Numbered from the stretch's first letter, positions 16,622-25,114 are shown. The stretch is 64,000 bases of DNA from an uncultured bacterium (GCA_964636385.1 CAZWSC010000078.1:42874-106873); one strand, 5' to 3'. Notes: generated by a model not told the origin, from the letters alone. Made by a program: numbers and translations.

Positions 16622-17812
16622 CTAGTACAGCCAGCTCTTGATGGTTCCGTCGGCCCGGAGCTCCGCGCCCTGGCGCCTGAAGGCCCAGCACATGTATGAC
16701 ACACTGACGAAGAACGAGGCCGGCAGCCTGTTGAGCGCGCCGATCTTGCAGCCCAGCAGAGTGGAAGCGCCGCCGAACCCCATCGGACCGATGCCCAGGG
16801 CATTCGCCTTGGTGAAGACCCTCTTCTCCAGCGCCGCCAGCTCCGGATTCGGGTTTGTGTCATCCAGCGACCTGAGCAGCTGCTCCTTGGATTCCGCATA
16901 TCCCGTGGCCCTGTCGCCTCCGACGCAGACCCCGAGGATCCCGGGTCCGCATCCCTTGCCCTGCGCCTGATAGACGGCGTCAAGTATGCACTTCTCCACA
17001 CCGGCCAGGTCACGGCCGGCGCCGAGTCGCCCGTAGGGTAAGGAGTACTGGATGCCGCAGTTCTCGCAACCGCCGCCCTTTAGGATCAGGCGGATCTCCA
17101 GGCCCGAACGGTTCCACTGCCGGATGTGGTAGACAGGAGAGCCGGGACCGAGATTGTTGCCCGAGTTCTTTCCTGTGAGGGAATCCACCGAGTTCTGCCT
17201 CAGGTAGCCCACCTCTGTTGCCTTTATCACGGCCTGCTCGGCGGAGCGGCGAAGCATCCCTTCGTCGAATCCGCGGGGCGCCTTGATGTAGAAGAGGATC
17301 GACCCCGTGTCCTGGCACAGGGGAAGGCTGTTCGCCCTGGCCAGGTCGATGTTTTCGTCGATGATCTTCATCGCCCAGATGGCGTTTGAGTCGGGAGCTT
17401 CGGAGTCCCGCGCCCTGTTCATCGCGCGCGCAACGTCATCGGGCAGATCTGCGGACGTCTTGCGCACGATCTCCAGAAACGCCGCGCGAAGGGCGGCGGG
17501 TGTCATACCCACAGCAGCGGCCTTTGAGGCTTTCTTCGCGGGTTTGACAGCCATGGCCCGTGCAGCTGCCTTCCTCGCGGGCGCCTTGGCGGAGGCTTTA
17601 ACAGCTGGCCTGGTCTTCTTCACGGGTGTCTTCGCCGCGGGCCTGGCCTTGCCGACAGGCGCCTTCTTCGCGGCTGACGGTCTGGCTGAAGCCTTGACTG
17701 CGGCCTTCCTGCCCCCGCTTCGCGCAGCGGAGGGCCTGGCGGTCTTTTTGCGTGTGGTGGTCTTCTTCGGGGCGGCGCGTCGCCCTGCACTCGACCCAGA
17801 GGCTTTTTGCAT
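16622..17812 (-). CDS. Fe-S hydro-lyase alpha subunit (class I fumarase/tartrate dehydratase alpha) with a ~100-aa N-terminal Lys/Ala/Pro-rich histone H1-like extension
   Basis: The catalytic part (CQDTGSILFYIKA...GGGCENCG...) is a typical alpha subunit. Upstream in-frame KAAVKASARPSAAKKAPVGKARPAAKTPVKKTRPAVKASAKAPARKAAARA. GGGGAG sits 9 nt before the ATG at 17812 and a TATAAC -10-like box lies upstream, supporting translation of the tail. A shorter start at 17506 lacks an RBS. Confidence 0.7.
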   Translation of the reverse strand: MQKASGSSAGRRAAPKKTTTRKKTARPSAARSGGRKAAVKASARPSAAKKAPVGKARPAAKTPVKKTRPAVKASAKAPARKAAARAMAVKPAKKASKAAAVGMTPAALRAAFLEIVRKTSADLPDDVARAMNRARDSEAPDSNAIWAMKIIDENIDLARANSLPLCQDTGSILFYIKAPRGFDEGMLRRSAEQAVIKATEVGYLRQNSVDSLTGKNSGNNLGPGSPVYHIRQWNRSGLEIRLILKGGGCENCGIQYSLPYGRLGAGRDLAGVEKCILDAVYQAQGKGCGPGILGVCVGGDRATGYAESKEQLLRSLDDTNPNPELAALEKRVFTKANALGIGPMGFGGASTLLGCKIGALNRLPASFFVSVSYMCWAFRRQGAELRADGTIKSWLY

Positions 17813-17970
17813 GCCTGTCATCTCCCCTCGCGTTATACCGACACTTCGTGGACTGCTGGATCATTGCGGCTGCCGGGCGTAGTGTCAAGCCAGCCTTGTC
17901 CGGAGCACCGTGAACCGGCAGGGGTTCGGACAGGCTTGTTATCCCGGAAAGATTGCGGGGCTCTCTGGAG

Positions 17971-20000: not shown

Positions 20001-20981
20001 CTACAGCAGTCCGAGAACCTTCCTGACCTCCGCCATGGTCTCCCGGGCGATGGCCCGGGCACGCCTTCCGCCCTCCTCCAGAATCTCCTCGACCATGCCG
20101 GGGGAGCTTTCGAGGTCGGCGGCCTTCGCCTGGATCGGCTCAAGGGTGGCCATCAGGTTCCTGTGCAGCATCTTCTTGCAGTCCACACACCCGATCCCCG
20201 CGATGCGGCACTCCCTGTCAACCGTGGCGATCGTCTCCTCGTCGGAGAAGTTCCGGTGCAGGGTGAAGATATTGCAGATGCCGGGGTCTCCTGGATCGGT
20301 CCGGCGCTTCCGGTTCTCATCTGTCATCGCCGGGGCCAGCTTCTTCCAGACAGAGTCGGAGCCCTCCAGAACCCCGATGTAGTTGTTGAGGGACTTGCTC
20401 ATCTTGCTTCTGCCGTCCATTCCCATGATCCGCCCCCCCTCCCTCGGGACAAGCTGTGCGGGCTCGGGGAACACCCCGGCGAAGCGGGCGTTGAACTTCC
20501 GGGCAATCTCCCTGGTCAGTTCAATGTGCTGAACCTGATCCTCACCGACAGGGACCGCCACGGCCTTGTACAGGAGAATGTCGGCTGCCTGAAGCACCGG
20601 ATAGGTGAAGAGGCCGGCGTTGATATTGTCCTCGTGCTGGCGGCTCTTCTCCTTGAACTGTGTCATCCTGGAAAGGTCGCCCATGGGGGTGACGGTGTTG
20701 AGGATCCAGGCAAGCTCTGTGTGCTCCGGTACGTGTGACTGAACGAACAGGGTGCATAGCGCGGGGTCCAGGCCGCAGGCAATGTTCACCCTTGCAGCAT
20801 CCAGGATCCTCTGCTTCATGGACTGAACATCGTACTGGATTGTAACGGCATGGTAGTCGACGACGCAGAATATGCACTCATACCGATCGAGGAGTTTAAC
20901 CCAGTTGCGGATTGCCCCGCAGTAGTTCCCTATGTGAATGTCGCCACTGGGCTGAATGCCGCTGAAGAGAAAGGGCTTCAC
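20001..20981 (-). CDS. trpS: Tryptophan--tRNA ligase
   Basis: HIGH-type motif (SGIQPSGDIHIGNY) and KMSKS. Length and overall fit to class I TrpRS. Confidence 0.9.
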   Translation of the reverse strand: MKPFLFSGIQPSGDIHIGNYCGAIRNWVKLLDRYECIFCVVDYHAVTIQYDVQSMKQRILDAARVNIACGLDPALCTLFVQSHVPEHTELAWILNTVTPMGDLSRMTQFKEKSRQHEDNINAGLFTYPVLQAADILLYKAVAVPVGEDQVQHIELTREIARKFNARFAGVFPEPAQLVPREGGRIMGMDGRSKMSKSLNNYIGVLEGSDSVWKKLAPAMTDENRKRRTDPGDPGICNIFTLHRNFSDEETIATVDRECRIAGIGCVDCKKMLHRNLMATLEPIQAKAADLESSPGMVEEILEEGGRRARAIARETMAEVRKVLGLL

Positions 20982-21093
20982 CTGAACCTCCCGATGCGCC
21001 CCCGGCAGCCGTGCATGGCAGGACCGGTGAGCCGGGGCAGAAAGACGGGGAACGGAAAAGCCCGCCCCCCGTCACATGTGTCATTCGATTTGG

Positions 21094-21603
21094 CTAGCGG
21101 ACGGCAAGTTCGACGAGCTTCGCGATCTTCTCGTACCGGCGGAGGCTGATGTTCGGGTTGTACTTCAGAAGGAGTTCCCGAAGATCGGCACAGAATGTCG
21201 AGTGGCTTGCCTGGCGAACCACCCTCTTGCTCCGCTTGCGGGCAACCTTGCGGGGCCTGGACAACCTTGCGACCGGCGCGGCCGCAGCGACCGGCTTGCG
21301 AACCGCCTTGCGCGCGACCTTCCTCACGGCCTTCTTCGCCTTGCGGGCCACCTTGCGTACGGCCTTCTTCCGGGCCGGACCGGCAACCACGATCCTCGCA
21401 CCCTTGCGCCGGCCACGGCTGATACCGGCCTTCCTCGCCTTGTTGTTTACTGTGGGGAGCGAGACGCCGTGCTTGTGGGCGATCTCGCGATAGCTGAGCT
21501 TGCCTGCCCTGATGTCGGCTATGATCGCCTTTTCCCGCTTCAGCAGGTCGATCTTTCCGGTACTTCTGGTCCGAGTGGTCCTTCTCGCCTTTGATGCCTT
21601 CAT
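21094..21603 (-). CDS. Small DNA-binding protein: N-terminal helix-turn-helix followed by histone H1-like KKAVRKVARKA repeats
   Basis: LSYREIAHKHGVSLPTVNNKARKAG looks like an HTH. Then ARKKAVRKVARKAKKAVRKVARKAVRKPVAAAAP. GGAAGGAG sits 8 nt before the ATG at 21603. Confidence 0.55.
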   Translation of the reverse strand: MKASKARRTTRTRSTGKIDLLKREKAIIADIRAGKLSYREIAHKHGVSLPTVNNKARKAGISRGRRKGARIVVAGPARKKAVRKVARKAKKAVRKVARKAVRKPVAAAAPVARLSRPRKVARKRSKRVVRQASHSTFCADLRELLLKYNPNISLRRYEKIAKLVELAVR

Positions 21604-22102
21604 GGCTGTCACTCCTTCCGGTTCCTTGCACGACCGCGCAACCAAGTCAACTTCTGCATCCTCCAGGGGACTCGGTGTCTCTCCGTCAACCAGGTGTCAG
21701 CCGGGCTGACAGGCGCGCCGTGCCGGTGCCTTCCGAGGCATGGAGGATGCACACGACATTGGATGCAGTATGGAAAGACTCCGCATGTGTGTCAACCTGC
21801 TTATAACAGATTTCGAGCAATAACCGGCATGGATCGTGTGCATTGGCGTTGGAAATTGATAATCGAACGTAGTGGTGATGGTGAGCCGGATGTCCCGCAT
21901 ATCGGCCTTGTACTTCACACATGATTCCTGCCCATTCGACCGGTACAGGTGTGTGTTGCCTTCGCAGTGTTCGGCAGGTGCGTGGAAGGGTCTGAACCTG
22001 CGTTCCGCTCTGCGCATGGAAATGCGATGACACGGAGGTGCCGTCTGAGTACTCTTCCTGGAATGCCCGGTTGGTCCCGGTGCGGACAGGAGGTGTAGCC
22101 TT

Positions 22103-23899
22103 ATGATCTCCGGGGGGAGTCACCCGCAGCAAGAGGAGAGGGCCGTTCAACTGGAGGTTGATTTCACTGCCGAAGTGAAGAGTCCGGAAGCCATGGCTGC
22201 TGCCGCGCGCGCCGGTGCGGCCAGAAGGAAGGAGCAGAAACGCGCGCCTTCCGGCAAAGCCACCCCGGATCCAACATCGACCAGAGGCGACTCCGCCACT
22301 GTCCGCGGCAGGGGAAGGCGTCGTGCCCGGGATTCAAAACCGTTGTCGGCCAAGGAGATGGCTTCCAGGCAGCGGGATATCTCGGTATCGGAGTTTTTTT
22401 CCAAAAACCGCCATCTCCTGGGCTTTGACAACCCCTCCAAGGCGCTCCTCACAACAGTGAAGGAAGCTGTGGACAACTCCCTGGACGCCTGCGAGGAAGC
22501 AGGTATTCTTCCGGACCTGCAGGTGGAGATCAGGCGCGTGGCAGAGGATCGTTACGCTGTTGCTGTACAGGACAACGGCCCGGGAATAGTGCGCAGCCAG
22601 GTGCCCAGGATATTCGGGAGGTTGCTGTACGGTTCGAAGTTCCACAGCCTGAAACAGAGCCGGGGGCAGCAGGGGATCGGCATCTCCGCCGCAGGCATGT
22701 ACGGTCTGATGACAACCGGCAAGCCGATACGCGTGATCTCGAGAACCGCCGCGAAAAGCCCTGCACACCTTTTCGAGCTGGTCATCGACACGGTCAGGAA
22801 CGAGCCGGAGCTGCTGGTGGATACGGAGGTGGAGTGGGATCAGGATCACGGCACGCGCGTCGAGATCACCCTCCAGGGGACGTACAAGAGGGGCCGCCAT
22901 TCGGTGGATGGCTATCTCAAGCAGATCGCCATTGCCAATCCGCACGCCCGGATCATCTACCATCCGCCGGAGCCGGAGGAGGGGCCGGTTCTGCTGGACA
23001 GGGTTTCCTCAGAGCTGCCGCCGGAACCGATCGAGATCAAACCGCATCCCCACGGTGTTGAGCTCGGACTGCTCCTGAAGATGCTGAAGGAGACCCGGGA
23101 GAGGCATCTCGCGCAGTTCCTCAACAGGGAGTTTTCCAGAGTGAGCCCCAGGGCGGCGGGGGAGATGCTCGAAGCGTCCGCCCTGTCCGCCAGGACGCGG
23201 CCGTCAAGGCTGTCAAACGGGGATGCGGAGCGTCTGCACGGGGCGATGACGCAGGCGAAGATCATGGCCCCGCCGGCGGACTGCGTCTCCCCGATCGGAG
23301 AGGAGCTTCTCTTCAGGGCCCTGAAGCAGGATGTGGAGACGGACTTCTACACATCCGTGACTCGTCCTCCCTCCGTGTACAGGGGCAATCCATTCCAGAT
23401 TGAGGTCGGCATGGCCTACGGTGGGCGCCTGCCGCAGGATGAAACCATAACGCTGTACCGATATGCAAACCGGGTTCCACTGCAGTATCAGCAGTCGGCC
23501 TGTGCGATTACAAAGGCAGTTCTGAGCATCGACTGGAAGAAGTACCACCTGTCCCAGGCCAGGGGAGCCCTCCCCGCAGGGCCGCTCATCCTGGTTGTGC
23601 ACATCGCATCCGTATGGGTGCCGTTCACATCCGAATCGAAGGAGGCGGTGGCGCACTATCCCGAGATCATACGCGAGATCAGGCTCGCTCTGCAGGAGGC
23701 CGGAAGGCGCGTCGGGGCGCACATAGGCAGGGTCAGGCGGGCGAAGGAAGAGGGCAAGAAGCGGTCGTACATACAGAAGTACATTCCCCACATCGGTTAT
23801 GCGCTGCAGGAGATCCTGGGGCTCAAGGATCCCGAGAGGGACAGCACGATCGAGATCCTGACCGACGTGTTGGAGAAGAGCCGGACTCAGCCGGGGTAA
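22103..23899 (+). CDS. top6B: DNA topoisomerase VI subunit B (GHKL/Bergerat ATPase) with a ~85-aa basic N-terminal extension
   Basis: SVSEFFSKNRHLLGFDNPSKALLTTVKEAVDNSLDA, KPHPHGVE and YRGNPFQIEVGMAYGG...LYRYANRVPLQY align with archaeal Top6B. AGGAGG sits 9 nt before the ATG at 22103. The internal ATG at 22358 has no spacer after its SD. Confidence 0.85.
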   Translation: MISGGSHPQQEERAVQLEVDFTAEVKSPEAMAAAARAGAARRKEQKRAPSGKATPDPTSTRGDSATVRGRGRRRARDSKPLSAKEMASRQRDISVSEFFSKNRHLLGFDNPSKALLTTVKEAVDNSLDACEEAGILPDLQVEIRRVAEDRYAVAVQDNGPGIVRSQVPRIFGRLLYGSKFHSLKQSRGQQGIGISAAGMYGLMTTGKPIRVISRTAAKSPAHLFELVIDTVRNEPELLVDTEVEWDQDHGTRVEITLQGTYKRGRHSVDGYLKQIAIANPHARIIYHPPEPEEGPVLLDRVSSELPPEPIEIKPHPHGVELGLLLKMLKETRERHLAQFLNREFSRVSPRAAGEMLEASALSARTRPSRLSNGDAERLHGAMTQAKIMAPPADCVSPIGEELLFRALKQDVETDFYTSVTRPPSVYRGNPFQIEVGMAYGGRLPQDETITLYRYANRVPLQYQQSACAITKAVLSIDWKKYHLSQARGALPAGPLILVVHIASVWVPFTSESKEAVAHYPEIIREIRLALQEAGRRVGAHIGRVRRAKEEGKKRSYIQKYIPHIGYALQEILGLKDPERDSTIEILTDVLEKSRTQPG

Positions 23900-23968: not shown

Positions 23969-25114
23969 ATGGCAGCTGGACGCAGGAATCGCAAGGACAT
24001 CAGGCAGAAGAACGAGGAGAAGGACAGGCAGACTCTGTCCCTAATCTCCGGGACCGCGGGGGAGATACACACCCGCGTGCTCAAGAGGCGCAAGCCGGAC
24101 CTGCGGTTCCCGGTTCGTGCGTTGTCGAATGTGAGCTACTCGGAGAAGAACGGATACCTGGAGATAGGGAAGGCGAAGAAGGTACGGACACTCACCGTGA
24201 ACACCGTGAAAGCGTTTGCCCAGACGCTGAGAATGATGTCCCTCTCGAAGAGTCTGATCGAGACCAACGACTTCGCGACCAAGAGGGACGCGTACTACCA
24301 GTCGAAGAACTGGGGCGAGGCGATGTTCCAGGATCAGCCCGAGTCGGATACCGTCATGGACGACATCGAGGCCCTCTTCTCTGTTCACAACGTCAGCCGC
24401 GAGCAGCTTCGCTTCATACCGGACGAGCACGGCGGAGCCGTTGCGGGCGAGCTGGTGGTCCTGGATCCCGATCTGGAATCCGGACGCGTCGAACGCATCG
24501 ACTGCACACGATTCGGCTCGGGCGCCTATTCCATCCCGGGTTCCGTGGAACAACTATCCTTCGAGACGGATGCCGGGTTCATCCTGGCCATTGAGACGGG
24601 CGGTATGTTCCAGAGGCTGCAGAATCACAAGTTCTGGGCGAAAGCCAACTGCATCCTGGTGTCGATGGGGGGCGTTCCCACCCGCGCCACCAGGCGGTTC
24701 ATCCGCAAGCTTTCGGACGAGAGGAAGATCCCGGTCTACGCGTTCGTTGACTGCGATCCCTACGGGATCTCCAACATCTACCGCACGCTCAAGGTGGGCA
24801 GCGGCAATGCCGCCCACATCAACCGCTTCTTCTGTGTTCCACAGGCCAGGTTCCTCGGGGTCACGCCGCGCGACATCGTGGAGTACAAGCTCCCGACCCA
24901 TCCCCTGAAGGAGGTGGACGTGAAGCGTGCGAAGGATGCGATAAGAAACGATCCGTTCTTCAGGCACCACAAGCCGTGGGTGAAGGCGATGAGCGAACTC
25001 CTGAAGATGGGTGTTCGCGCCGAACAGCAGGCCCTTGCGAAGTGGGGACTGAACTACGTGATCGAGGAGTACCTGCCGGCGAAGCTGGCAAATCCCAGGC
25101 TGTTCCTGCCCTAG
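23969..25114 (+). CDS. top6A: DNA topoisomerase VI subunit A (Spo11-like, Toprim)
   Basis: Toprim acidic motif YAFVDCDPYGISNIY. Spo11/Top6A-like winged-helix region. AGGAG RBS. Immediately downstream of top6B. Confidence 0.85.
   Translation: MAAGRRNRKDIRQKNEEKDRQTLSLISGTAGEIHTRVLKRRKPDLRFPVRALSNVSYSEKNGYLEIGKAKKVRTLTVNTVKAFAQTLRMMSLSKSLIETNDFATKRDAYYQSKNWGEAMFQDQPESDTVMDDIEALFSVHNVSREQLRFIPDEHGGAVAGELVVLDPDLESGRVERIDCTRFGSGAYSIPGSVEQLSFETDAGFILAIETGGMFQRLQNHKFWAKANCILVSMGGVPTRATRRFIRKLSDERKIPVYAFVDCDPYGISNIYRTLKVGSGNAAHINRFFCVPQARFLGVTPRDIVEYKLPTHPLKEVDVKRAKDAIRNDPFFRHHKPWVKAMSELLKMGVRAEQQALAKWGLNYVIEEYLPAKLANPRLFLP

Follow-up and report, generated by a model that had tools for sequence, protein, structure and literature searches.

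A basic helix-turn-helix protein encoded head-to-head with topoisomerase VI genes in Candidatus Eiseniibacteriota is a candidate chromatin-type DNA-binding protein

Bacterial proteins with Lys/Ala(/Pro) repeats of the histone H1-like kind include AlgP of Pseudomonas (PMC9239181) and the actinobacterial HupS/HupB proteins, in which the repeats form tails (PMC9756944). Lysine repeats are also present at the C-terminus of Streptomyces TopA (PMC5714199), and myxobacterial CarD contains a domain of the H1-like or HMGA type (PMC2919716). Polycationic tails raise the DNA affinity of topology proteins, as described for Streptomyces TopA (PMC5714199) and HupS (PMC9756944). In plants, topoisomerase VI (topo VI) requires two small DNA-binding accessory proteins; no such proteins are known in bacteria, and according to a recent survey BIN4 and RHL1 are absent from them (PMC11302465). 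Here we describe a gene from a 64,000-nucleotide stretch of DNA of an uncultured bacterium (GCA_964636385.1, CAZWSC010000078.1:42874-106873), called the window below. The gene encodes a small basic helix-turn-helix (HTH) protein, HTH-KA, and is located divergently beside the genes of topo VI. An earlier reading of the same DNA (the original prediction) suggested that the protein could be a nucleoid-associated protein or a regulator of the topoisomerase operon. We tentatively favour, with a probability of roughly 45%, the explanation that HTH-KA is a lineage-specific, abundant, chromatin-type DNA-binding protein, which would be controlled by feedback through its mRNA leader and functionally tied to topo VI.

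The gene and its neighbours are arranged in the window as follows (lengths in amino acids, aa).

21094..21603, minus strand: coding sequence of HTH-KA (open reading frame and translation; stop codon at 21094-21096)
22103..23899, plus strand: top6B, 598 aa, the divergent partner (Pfam Topo-VIb_trans, E=1e-59, and HATPase_c)
23969..25114, plus strand: top6A, 381 aa (Pfam TOP6A-Spo11_Toprim, E=3e-59, TP6A_N and Topo_VI_alpha)
20001-20981, minus strand: trpS, downstream of HTH-KA on the same strand, after a 112-bp spacer with a terminator-like hairpin

The open reading frame encodes a protein of 169 aa with an isoelectric point of 12.0, and its translation is identical to the one given originally. 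The start codon is the ATG at 21603, common to all homologues and standing 38–56 codons ahead of the invariant VSLPTV motif. A longer version of 183 aa from a TTG start is unsupported. The gene is present in one copy in the window and in one copy per locus among its relatives. In comparison with relatives at 88% and 80% protein identity, the synonymous divergence (dS) was 0.55–0.68 and the ratio of nonsynonymous to synonymous divergence (dN/dS) was 0.11–0.21, and therefore the gene is under purifying selection. The possibility that the reading frame is unconserved, or that it is a pseudogene among disrupted neighbours, had been raised at the outset. The dN/dS ratio and the 98 homologues described below argue against the former, and the adjoining genes are intact housekeeping genes.

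In a search of 5.8 billion protein clusters, we found 98 relatives of HTH-KA, 102–237 aa in length, annotated as "hypothetical" or with generic HTH names. Only 4 of the 98 carry the name of an organism, and all four belong to Candidatus Eisenbacteria (currently named the phylum Candidatus Eiseniibacteriota). When 1.84 billion representatives were searched exhaustively with a profile, 27 clusters scored at E <1e-30, followed by unrelated proteins with multiple HTH motifs. A scan of one genome per species of the Genome Taxonomy Database (GTDB) gave 22 HTH-KA loci. Eleven of them are titled Candidatus Eisenbacteria, and the others are in metagenome-assembled genomes (MAGs) and in one 1.8-kb contig labelled Verrucomicrobiota. 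Every HTH-KA locus derives from a MAG, all within one uncultured phylum. To judge from these sequences, HTH-KA forms a family of roughly 100 sequence clusters that has no annotation and is confined to one phylum, a restriction that the original prediction missed.

The divergent position beside the topo VI genes, claimed from the start, was confirmed: Pfam identifies both top6B and top6A, and 499 bp separate the ATG codons of HTH-KA and top6B. The search for homologues with synteny to top6BA, proposed earlier as a check, showed that top6B-top6A lies divergently upstream of HTH-KA in 22/22 informative loci, the window included. The informative loci are six long contigs found by exact-protein look-up, the GTDB loci with enough upstream DNA, and the window; L019 and L025 were too short. 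Across this set, identities are 63–74% for Top6B, 73–85% for Top6A and 35–49% for HTH-KA. The genes past top6A vary between loci (ApbE, Rce1-like, BrkB, YjbQ). On the other side, trpS is located 3' of HTH-KA in 17/21 informative loci, and the fumarase genes lie a few kb further. In L005 and L027, a gene for a major facilitator superfamily (MFS) transporter on the opposite strand is inserted between HTH-KA and trpS. The junction with top6B is the only one in the neighbourhood of HTH-KA that is unbroken in every locus.

We also examined this linkage starting from topo VI. Scanning metagenomes gave 80 top6B loci at 51–66% identity, about 52 of them informative (more than 1.1 kb of upstream DNA), and HTH-KA was absent from all 80. 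The hidden Markov model pipeline used for detection recovered 30/30 positive controls. In a neighbour-joining tree of Top6B (a simple distance tree, no bootstrap), the HTH-KA-bearing loci form a single clade. The 80 loci lie outside this clade, which shows restriction to a clade and not coverage of every topo VI of Eiseniibacteriota. In the sister clade, top6B is preceded by a ComM/YifB-like gene. The co-occurrence is thus one-way: every HTH-KA gene with enough flanking DNA is beside top6BA, and topo VI outside the clade is without HTH-KA. Since one Top6B clade has the gene and no locus outside it does, a single origin follows. As read from the tree, the HTH-KA gene had one origin, basal to a single Top6B clade, and has been beside top6B ever since. 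We found no mention of Eisenbacteria together with topo VI in the literature.

The layout of the protein was determined from an alignment of 37 sequences and from a single-chain AlphaFold2 model built on this alignment. The two agree on four parts, beginning with a basic, disordered N-terminus. The features that follow it are given below; pLDDT is the predicted local distance difference test score of the model.

21424..21555, minus strand: three-helix HTH, the predicted DNA-binding domain, aa 17-60, with the recognition helix LPTVNNKARKAG
21397..21423, minus strand: AT-hook-like basic arm ISRGRRKGA, aa 61-69, directly C-terminal of the recognition helix (from the alignment)
21205..21396, minus strand: polycationic low-complexity linker, aa 70-133, which holds the 33-bp x 2 repeat at 21304-21370 (from composition and low pLDDT)
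21097..21204, minus strand: conserved C-terminal two-helix hairpin, aa 134-169 (helices 135-148 and 154-168, pLDDT about 88 in the AlphaFold2 model)

The N-terminal HTH of the original prediction is borne out by three helices (17-33, 38-45 and 49-58) with pLDDT >90, and most of the 23 invariant columns of the alignment fall within it. In the arm, R63 and R66 are invariant and G64 is nearly so; distant members have RPRGRRP at this place. By analogy with AT-hooks, Lsr2 and Hin, whose RGR motifs act in the minor groove, the RGRR arm of HTH-KA may have a minor-groove role. The whole protein contains 54 Lys/Arg against 8 Asp/Glu, with a net charge of about +46. Residues 61-133 (73 aa) include 30 Lys/Arg, 16 Ala and no acidic residues. 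The tandem KKAVRKVARKA repeat first reported for this protein is present, but the run is short: two copies and a partial third (Tandem Repeats Finder: 33-bp period, 2.0 copies, 21304-21370, 85% matches). In the family, the linker varies from 47 to 112 aa with many in-frame indels and contains 28–46% Lys+Arg. The most conserved parts are the HTH and the C-terminal hairpin. The C-terminal element, described earlier as one short helix, is indeed conserved but is a hairpin of two helices. Its residues F137 and P150 are invariant, and it is retained in a distant member, P0146. We regard it as a candidate module for self-association or for docking of a partner.

HTH-KA resembles the AlgP/HupS/HupB/TopA/CarD group in that a polycationic low-complexity segment that contains short tandem repeats and lacks acidic residues is attached to a folded module related to nucleic acids. 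By analogy, a sequence-independent affinity for DNA would be expected. With TopA and HupS it also has a link to DNA topology in common, here through its place beside the topo VI genes. It differs from the whole group in three respects: the basic segment stands internally, linking two folded domains, instead of forming a terminal tail; Arg is as common as Lys or commoner; and the folded partner is an HTH of the sigma-4/recombinase type rather than HU, CarD_TRCF or a topoisomerase. Its sequence is not homologous to any of these proteins. The label "histone H1-like" therefore holds for composition, with tandem repeats and no acidic residues, but not for fold: the globular winged-helix domain of H1 is replaced by a three-helix HTH, and Arg outnumbers Lys across the family (median K/(K+R) 0.36).

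By predicted layout, HTH-KA is close to Caulobacter GcrA (PDB 5yiu, 7ye1; PF07750). The two proteins are of similar size (173 aa in GcrA and 169 aa in HTH-KA), and both have a small N-terminal HTH-type domain, a disordered linker and a C-terminal helical domain, which in GcrA is a protein-interaction domain that binds sigma-70 domain 2. They also have a similar pattern, GLSxxxIAxxxG-V...V..K..R.GLS.R. However, the C-terminal domains are unrelated in sequence, and GcrA is alphaproteobacterial and has no link to topo VI. Membership in the GcrA family was rejected: none of the 37 members matched PF07750 at E up to 0.1, the hhalign probability was 4.9%, and no GcrA chain was among the PDB sequence matches of HTH-KA at E up to 1. 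The bridging nucleoid proteins H-NS, Lsr2 and Rok are also modular, with a small helical domain joined by a flexible linker to a DNA-binding domain that has an RGR-type arm, a design that would allow bridging. In them the domain order is reversed and there is no homology of sequence or fold; the likeness of HTH-KA is one of predicted layout. The plant topo VI accessory proteins BIN4 and RHL1 are likewise small DNA-binding proteins that track the presence of topo VI. No homology with them is expected, and the association of HTH-KA with topo VI is one of gene order only.

Searches of family databases did not assign HTH-KA to a described family. Pfam and NCBIfam gave only sub-threshold HTH matches, and the H1, AlgP, Hc1 and HupB families were not found. 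The best Pfam match of the window protein is PF08281 (Sigma70_r4_2; E=3.5e-4, 20.6 bits against a cutoff of 25.7), and PF04545 gave 16.6 bits against a cutoff of 24.1. Sigma70_r4_2 matches at E up to 0.1 were found in 36/37 members (best E 6.4e-6), and the homologue P0019 has a precomputed PF08281 match. The HTH could thus be compared with the sigma-70 region 4.2, LuxR-CsgD and Hin-resolvase class, for which the window protein and most members checked fall below the Pfam gathering cutoffs. A sigma factor would also have region 2, for core binding and -10 recognition; here sigma regions 1-3 are absent, the 169 aa contain no other Pfam domain, and the AlphaFold2 model is limited to HTH, linker and hairpin. 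The receiver domain of LuxR-CsgD proteins and the catalytic domain of Hin-type recombinases are absent as well. Foldseek against PDB and BFVD gave no match below E 0.01. The HTH resembles generic folds alone (sigma region 4, recombinase, TrpR, GcrA).

Two further proteins with this type of HTH were observed outside the HTH-KA loci. The distant relative P0146 (113 aa; L111, 6001-6342) has the HTH and the C-terminal hairpin with almost no basic linker. It is surrounded by many small same-strand reading frames (SprT-like, dCMP deaminase) on a phage-like contig with 37% GC. As P0146 has the folded core without the linker, the core is older than the polycationic spacer; as it lies in a phage-like contig, the core is not confined to Eiseniibacteriota. 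The core shared by HTH-KA and P0146 may point to a phage connection. A near-identical HTH module (LTYREIAKKYNVSLPTVNTKARKAGIVRPRGRR) forms the C-terminus of P0113, a protein of 325 aa (L114-L116; L114, 6001-6978). Its gene is the next one past a type I Zorya cluster (ZorA-like, OmpA, EH_Signature, SNF2 helicase), in a defence island that also contains HicAB.

The elements that would control expression of the gene are the following.

21612..21619, minus strand: Shine-Dalgarno sequence GGAAGGAG, 8 nt ahead of the ATG (a box of the AAGGAG/GGAGG type in all 22 orthologous loci)
21767..21795, minus strand: sigma-70 promoter from a promoter scan, -35 TTGACA (21790-21795), 17-nt spacer, -10 CATACT (21767-21772)
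21604..21766, minus strand: 5' leader of 163 nt, constrained and probably a structured RNA (three-way alignment)
21039..21073, minus strand: terminator-like hairpin from folding, 12 bp of G+C followed by UUUCU, 22 nt past the stop codon and before trpS
22027..22055, plus strand: putative weaker top6B promoter, ATGACA, 17 nt, TACTCT (found by eye; absent from the promoter-scan output)

The strong ribosome-binding site (RBS) claimed for this gene is confirmed, and an equivalent box is present in all orthologous loci. The promoter is just as regular: exactly one sense-strand TTGACA-N15-19-xAxxxT site was found per locus in 22/22 loci, 120–326 nt ahead of the ATG, with TTGACA intact throughout and a -10 box of the form xATACT. 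The whole window has only two such sites, and the other one fronts the gene for fumarase alpha. A consensus promoter together with a strong RBS favours an abundant HTH-KA protein, as far as expression can be read from sequence. The hairpin past the stop codon has a weak U-tract and is below the threshold of the terminator scan. Because it resembles a terminator, the HTH-KA gene is probably mostly monocistronic. The putative top6B promoter is partly conserved: the xTGACA hexamer and a GTAC core are kept in the three-way alignment.

The leader, which was missed originally, is 91–297 nt long in the other loci. Between the window and its relatives at 88% and 80% protein identity, 5–9% of leader positions differ (91–95% identical), compared with 39–45% of synonymous sites. 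The rate of change of the leader is thus 5–8 times lower than at synonymous sites, and the remaining intergenic sequence can hardly be aligned. Leader identity also exceeds identity at 4-fold sites in all five further pairs, including the close pairs L011/L012 and L014/L015. In the subclade of L023, L026, L027 and L029, RNAalifold gave a structure of 27 pairs in five helices. In it 89.8% of cells are paired and 11 pairs are changed on both sides (compensatory); 0/500 shuffles match this, and slid controls reach at most 56% paired. A covariance model from these four leaders found a fifth, independent leader at the expected place in L019 (65 bits, E about 1e-15), which retains the hairpins with different sequences. 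The covariation comes from five sequences in all and was scored on the data that had yielded the structure. Folded singly, the window leader is unexceptional (z = -1.1). In distant loci, a covariance model (R1) of the window-type leader detected no counterpart beyond a weak match to the RBS-proximal part, which gives no support to a single leader architecture for all of the family. Rfam has no family for the window region or for eight related loci. We consider that the HTH-KA leader is probably a structured RNA. An upstream reading frame of 20 codons from the ATG at 21757 was dropped, with no RBS and with non-synonymous changes in the 80% relative.

We searched for an operator in 20–22 orthologous upstream regions using exact k-mers, k-mers with 1–2 mismatches and a Gibbs sampler, with shuffled controls. 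No phylum-wide operator motif was found in these regions, and only the promoter hexamers and the RBS stood above the controls. The Gibbs sampler returned TTGTACA with an information content of 9.8 against 7.6–8.6 for the null. The palindrome TGTACA, often within TTGTACAA, occurs 1.2 times per kb in the 450 bp upstream of HTH-KA and 0.14 times per kb elsewhere, an enrichment of about 9-fold. It is present in only 11/22 loci (L010, L014-L017, L022, L023, L026-L029), at fixed positions specific to subclades: just past the -10 box, or 65–100 bp ahead of the -35 box. In L010, L015 and L016 it stands at +36/37 from the -35 box. The window upstream region lacks TGTACA and has GTGTGCA in the early leader instead. 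A perfect 10-bp inverted repeat, ATGCACACGA at 21747-21756 and TCGTGTGCAT at 21834-21843, brackets the core promoter of HTH-KA; one arm falls in the early leader and the other precedes the -35 box by about 40 bp. The two close relatives keep the leader arm unchanged and have 1 and 4 mismatches in the upstream arm, which decays in the 80% relative. Repeat copies near the top6B promoter, found in a direct and inverted repeat search of 21604-22102, are not conserved in close relatives. Across loci, the intergenic region between HTH-KA and top6B is about 250–1000 bp long.

Other proteins of this neighbourhood also carry basic extensions. As originally predicted, the N-terminal region of Top6B is basic: residues 1-92 (22103-22380) form an extension that is disordered and some 90 aa long. 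Close to the tip it carries a QLEVDF motif (Q-x-x-hydrophobic-x-F), which we take to resemble bacterial beta-sliding-clamp-binding motifs such as QL[SD]LF or QVELEF. The motif occurs in 15/22 HTH-KA-bearing loci and in 8/68 other top6B loci, with fewer than 0.5 expected from shuffling. Examples are L010, L013, L016, L021-L023 and L027-L030, and L032, L033, L042 and L067 of the sister clade. It could be a replisome tether for topo VI or a docking site. The Top6B of L037 (3686-5701), of the sister clade, is 671 aa long and has a 165-aa N-terminal extension of tandem repeats of about 33 aa (PTPTRRAAKPRAA.PKN.TRQSP..LAKPL). Judging from this sequence, in lineages without HTH-KA the basic tail of DNA-binding type can be much longer and fused to Top6B itself. 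The Lys/Ala tail attributed earlier to fumarase alpha is present too, but at the N-terminus: in this class I enzyme (16622-17821, minus strand) it is a Lys/Ala/Pro-rich extension of about 105 aa. Fumarase alpha is the only other reading frame in the window with at least 7 Lys and at least 7 Ala in 30 aa. Its promoter-like site at 17860-17888 (minus strand) is the only other TTGACA-N17-NANNNT in the window. The extended form (422–435 aa) is also encoded near top6BA in L001 and L008, and L005 has the normal form of 294 aa.

According to the explanation that we favour, the HTH-KA and top6BA genes would share a bidirectional control region. The invariant three-helix HTH would read the major groove, with the RGRR arm in the adjacent minor groove, and the polycationic linker of 50–110 residues would add a strong sequence-independent affinity for DNA. 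The C-terminal hairpin would pair two HTH-KA molecules or dock a partner, so that two heads could coat, bend or bridge DNA. We infer such sequence-tolerant binding, with bending or bridging, from the charge of the protein and its two-module layout in the model. The protein would be synthesized from a consensus sigma-70 promoter and a strong RBS, and its level tuned post-transcriptionally by the structured leader, probably by feedback. The same promoter and Shine-Dalgarno sequence serve as our proxies for a high abundance in the cell. HTH-KA may then set top6BA transcription from the shared region (compare Fis with gyrase and topA in E. coli), or shape the DNA on which topo VI works, or both. 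Since it has been head-to-head with top6BA from the time the family arose, it most likely acts in the same process as topo VI. The sequences show that the gene is real, how its domains are laid out, that it is conserved and syntenic, that it has a promoter and RBS, and that its leader is constrained; DNA binding, abundance, dimerization and a connection with the activity of topo VI are inferred from them.

Several points weigh against this explanation. For abundance, the quality of the promoter and RBS is the whole of the argument. Basic tails are also found on fumarase alpha and Top6B, and such a tail may be a habit of the lineage rather than a mark of nucleoid proteins. As trpS (17/21) and the fumarase genes are also syntenic, part of the linkage may be inherited gene order. 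An invariant recognition helix is compatible with a sequence-specific regulator as well, and the 9-fold enrichment of TGTACA, though limited to 11/22 loci and missing from the window, makes a degenerate operator possible.

It is possible, although somewhat unlikely in our estimation, that HTH-KA is a dedicated sequence-specific local regulator, a repressor or activator of top6BA and of its own gene that works from the intergenic region between them, and in which the basic linker merely boosts affinity. A small HTH gene lies divergently beside an operon and keeps this head-to-head position in 22/22 informative loci; Korbel et al. 2004 are said to have described this as the classic arrangement of a regulator and its target. 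The invariance of the recognition helix, the long intergenic regions (about 250–1000 bp), the enrichment of TGTACA at positions fixed within subclades and the 10-bp inverted repeat flanking the window promoter all agree with such a role. However, the promoter is the sole motif common to all loci, the k-mer and Gibbs results being at or barely above the shuffled controls, and this argues against a narrow operator-type regulator. TGTACA is absent from the window, and the inverted repeat is degraded at its upstream arm in the 80% relative. HTH-KA also has no sensor domain, and a consensus promoter with a strong RBS is unusual for a low-copy regulator. We consider it unlikely that HTH-KA is a stoichiometric accessory factor of topo VI that docks through its C-terminal hairpin and supplies DNA binding or bridging, by analogy with BIN4 and RHL1. 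The strict co-location with top6BA and the origin at the base of one Top6B clade would suit such a factor, and plant topo VI offers a precedent with no known bacterial counterpart (PMC11302465). Topo VI prefers DNA crossings and bends (PMC5922973), and a two-headed bridging protein could make these. The basic tail of Top6B could offer a docking site in its QxxhxF motif (15/22 against 8/68 loci). But this motif predates HTH-KA, is also found in the sister clade without HTH-KA, and is presumably more like a beta-clamp-binding motif. Moreover, subunits are usually co-transcribed and not divergent, and in 1.84 billion representative proteins the C-terminal domain was never found fused to Top6A or Top6B. 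The fuller form of this idea is a long shot as well: HTH-KA as a DNA-side partner of topo VI analogous to BIN4/RHL1, either dimerized by its C-terminal hairpin or docked by it on the enzyme, which would bridge or bend DNA with two HTH heads and polycationic linkers and present preferred crossings, with its level set by a new class of structured leader.

A general nucleoid or nucleic-acid-binding protein, whose adjacency to top6BA is inherited gene order, seems to us very unlikely; a role in RNA binding or one related to trpS would belong here too. Within the phylum, top6BA, HTH-KA, trpS and fumAB are largely syntenic, and independent events are few in a family confined to one phylum. Both the high Arg content of the protein and the structured mRNA leader would suit an RNA-binding role. 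Against this reading, the adjacency to top6B alone holds in 22/22 loci, trpS follows in 17/21, and the genes past top6A are variable; a terminator-like hairpin separates HTH-KA from trpS, and the MFS gene intervenes in L005 and L027. The last explanation, that HTH-KA serves no function in the host and is left over from a mobile element, as an HTH fragment of small-terminase-like or recombinase-like type, is effectively refuted. A match of the HTH to a terminase fragment was named at the outset as a sign of it, and 29/37 members do match the PHROG 1206 "terminase small subunit" profile (E=4e-8, residues 27-151). This match covers the HTH and the compositionally biased basic linker, and the bias may contribute to it. 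The distant relative P0146 in its phage-like 37%-GC contig points the same way. However, tblastn in 50,697 phage genomes gave no match to HTH-KA, no terminase was among the significant BFVD matches, which were generic HTH proteins only, and no catalytic or terminase oligomerization domain is present. The gene is under purifying selection and keeps a fixed chromosomal place among housekeeping genes across the phylum, flanked by top6B and trpS with no phage genes nearby. The terminase or prophage-remnant reading was therefore rejected.

Thus, an abundant chromatin-type protein tied to topo VI remains the explanation we prefer for HTH-KA. With its HTH, RGRR arm, polycationic linker and helical hairpin, the family joins the short list of candidate chromatin proteins from candidate phyla. 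Its leader is an uncatalogued mRNA leader under selective constraint, and the lineage appears to have a habit of placing basic disordered segments on proteins as unlike as Top6B and fumarase. HTH-KA, Top6A and Top6B are small enough for heterologous expression, and therefore the lack of cultures from this phylum need not stand in the way of experiments. By analogy, HTH-KA is the first candidate for a bacterial counterpart of BIN4/RHL1. Topo VI is sporadic in bacteria and its role there is unclear; HTH-KA offers a testable candidate for its partner or for a regulator linked to DNA topology.

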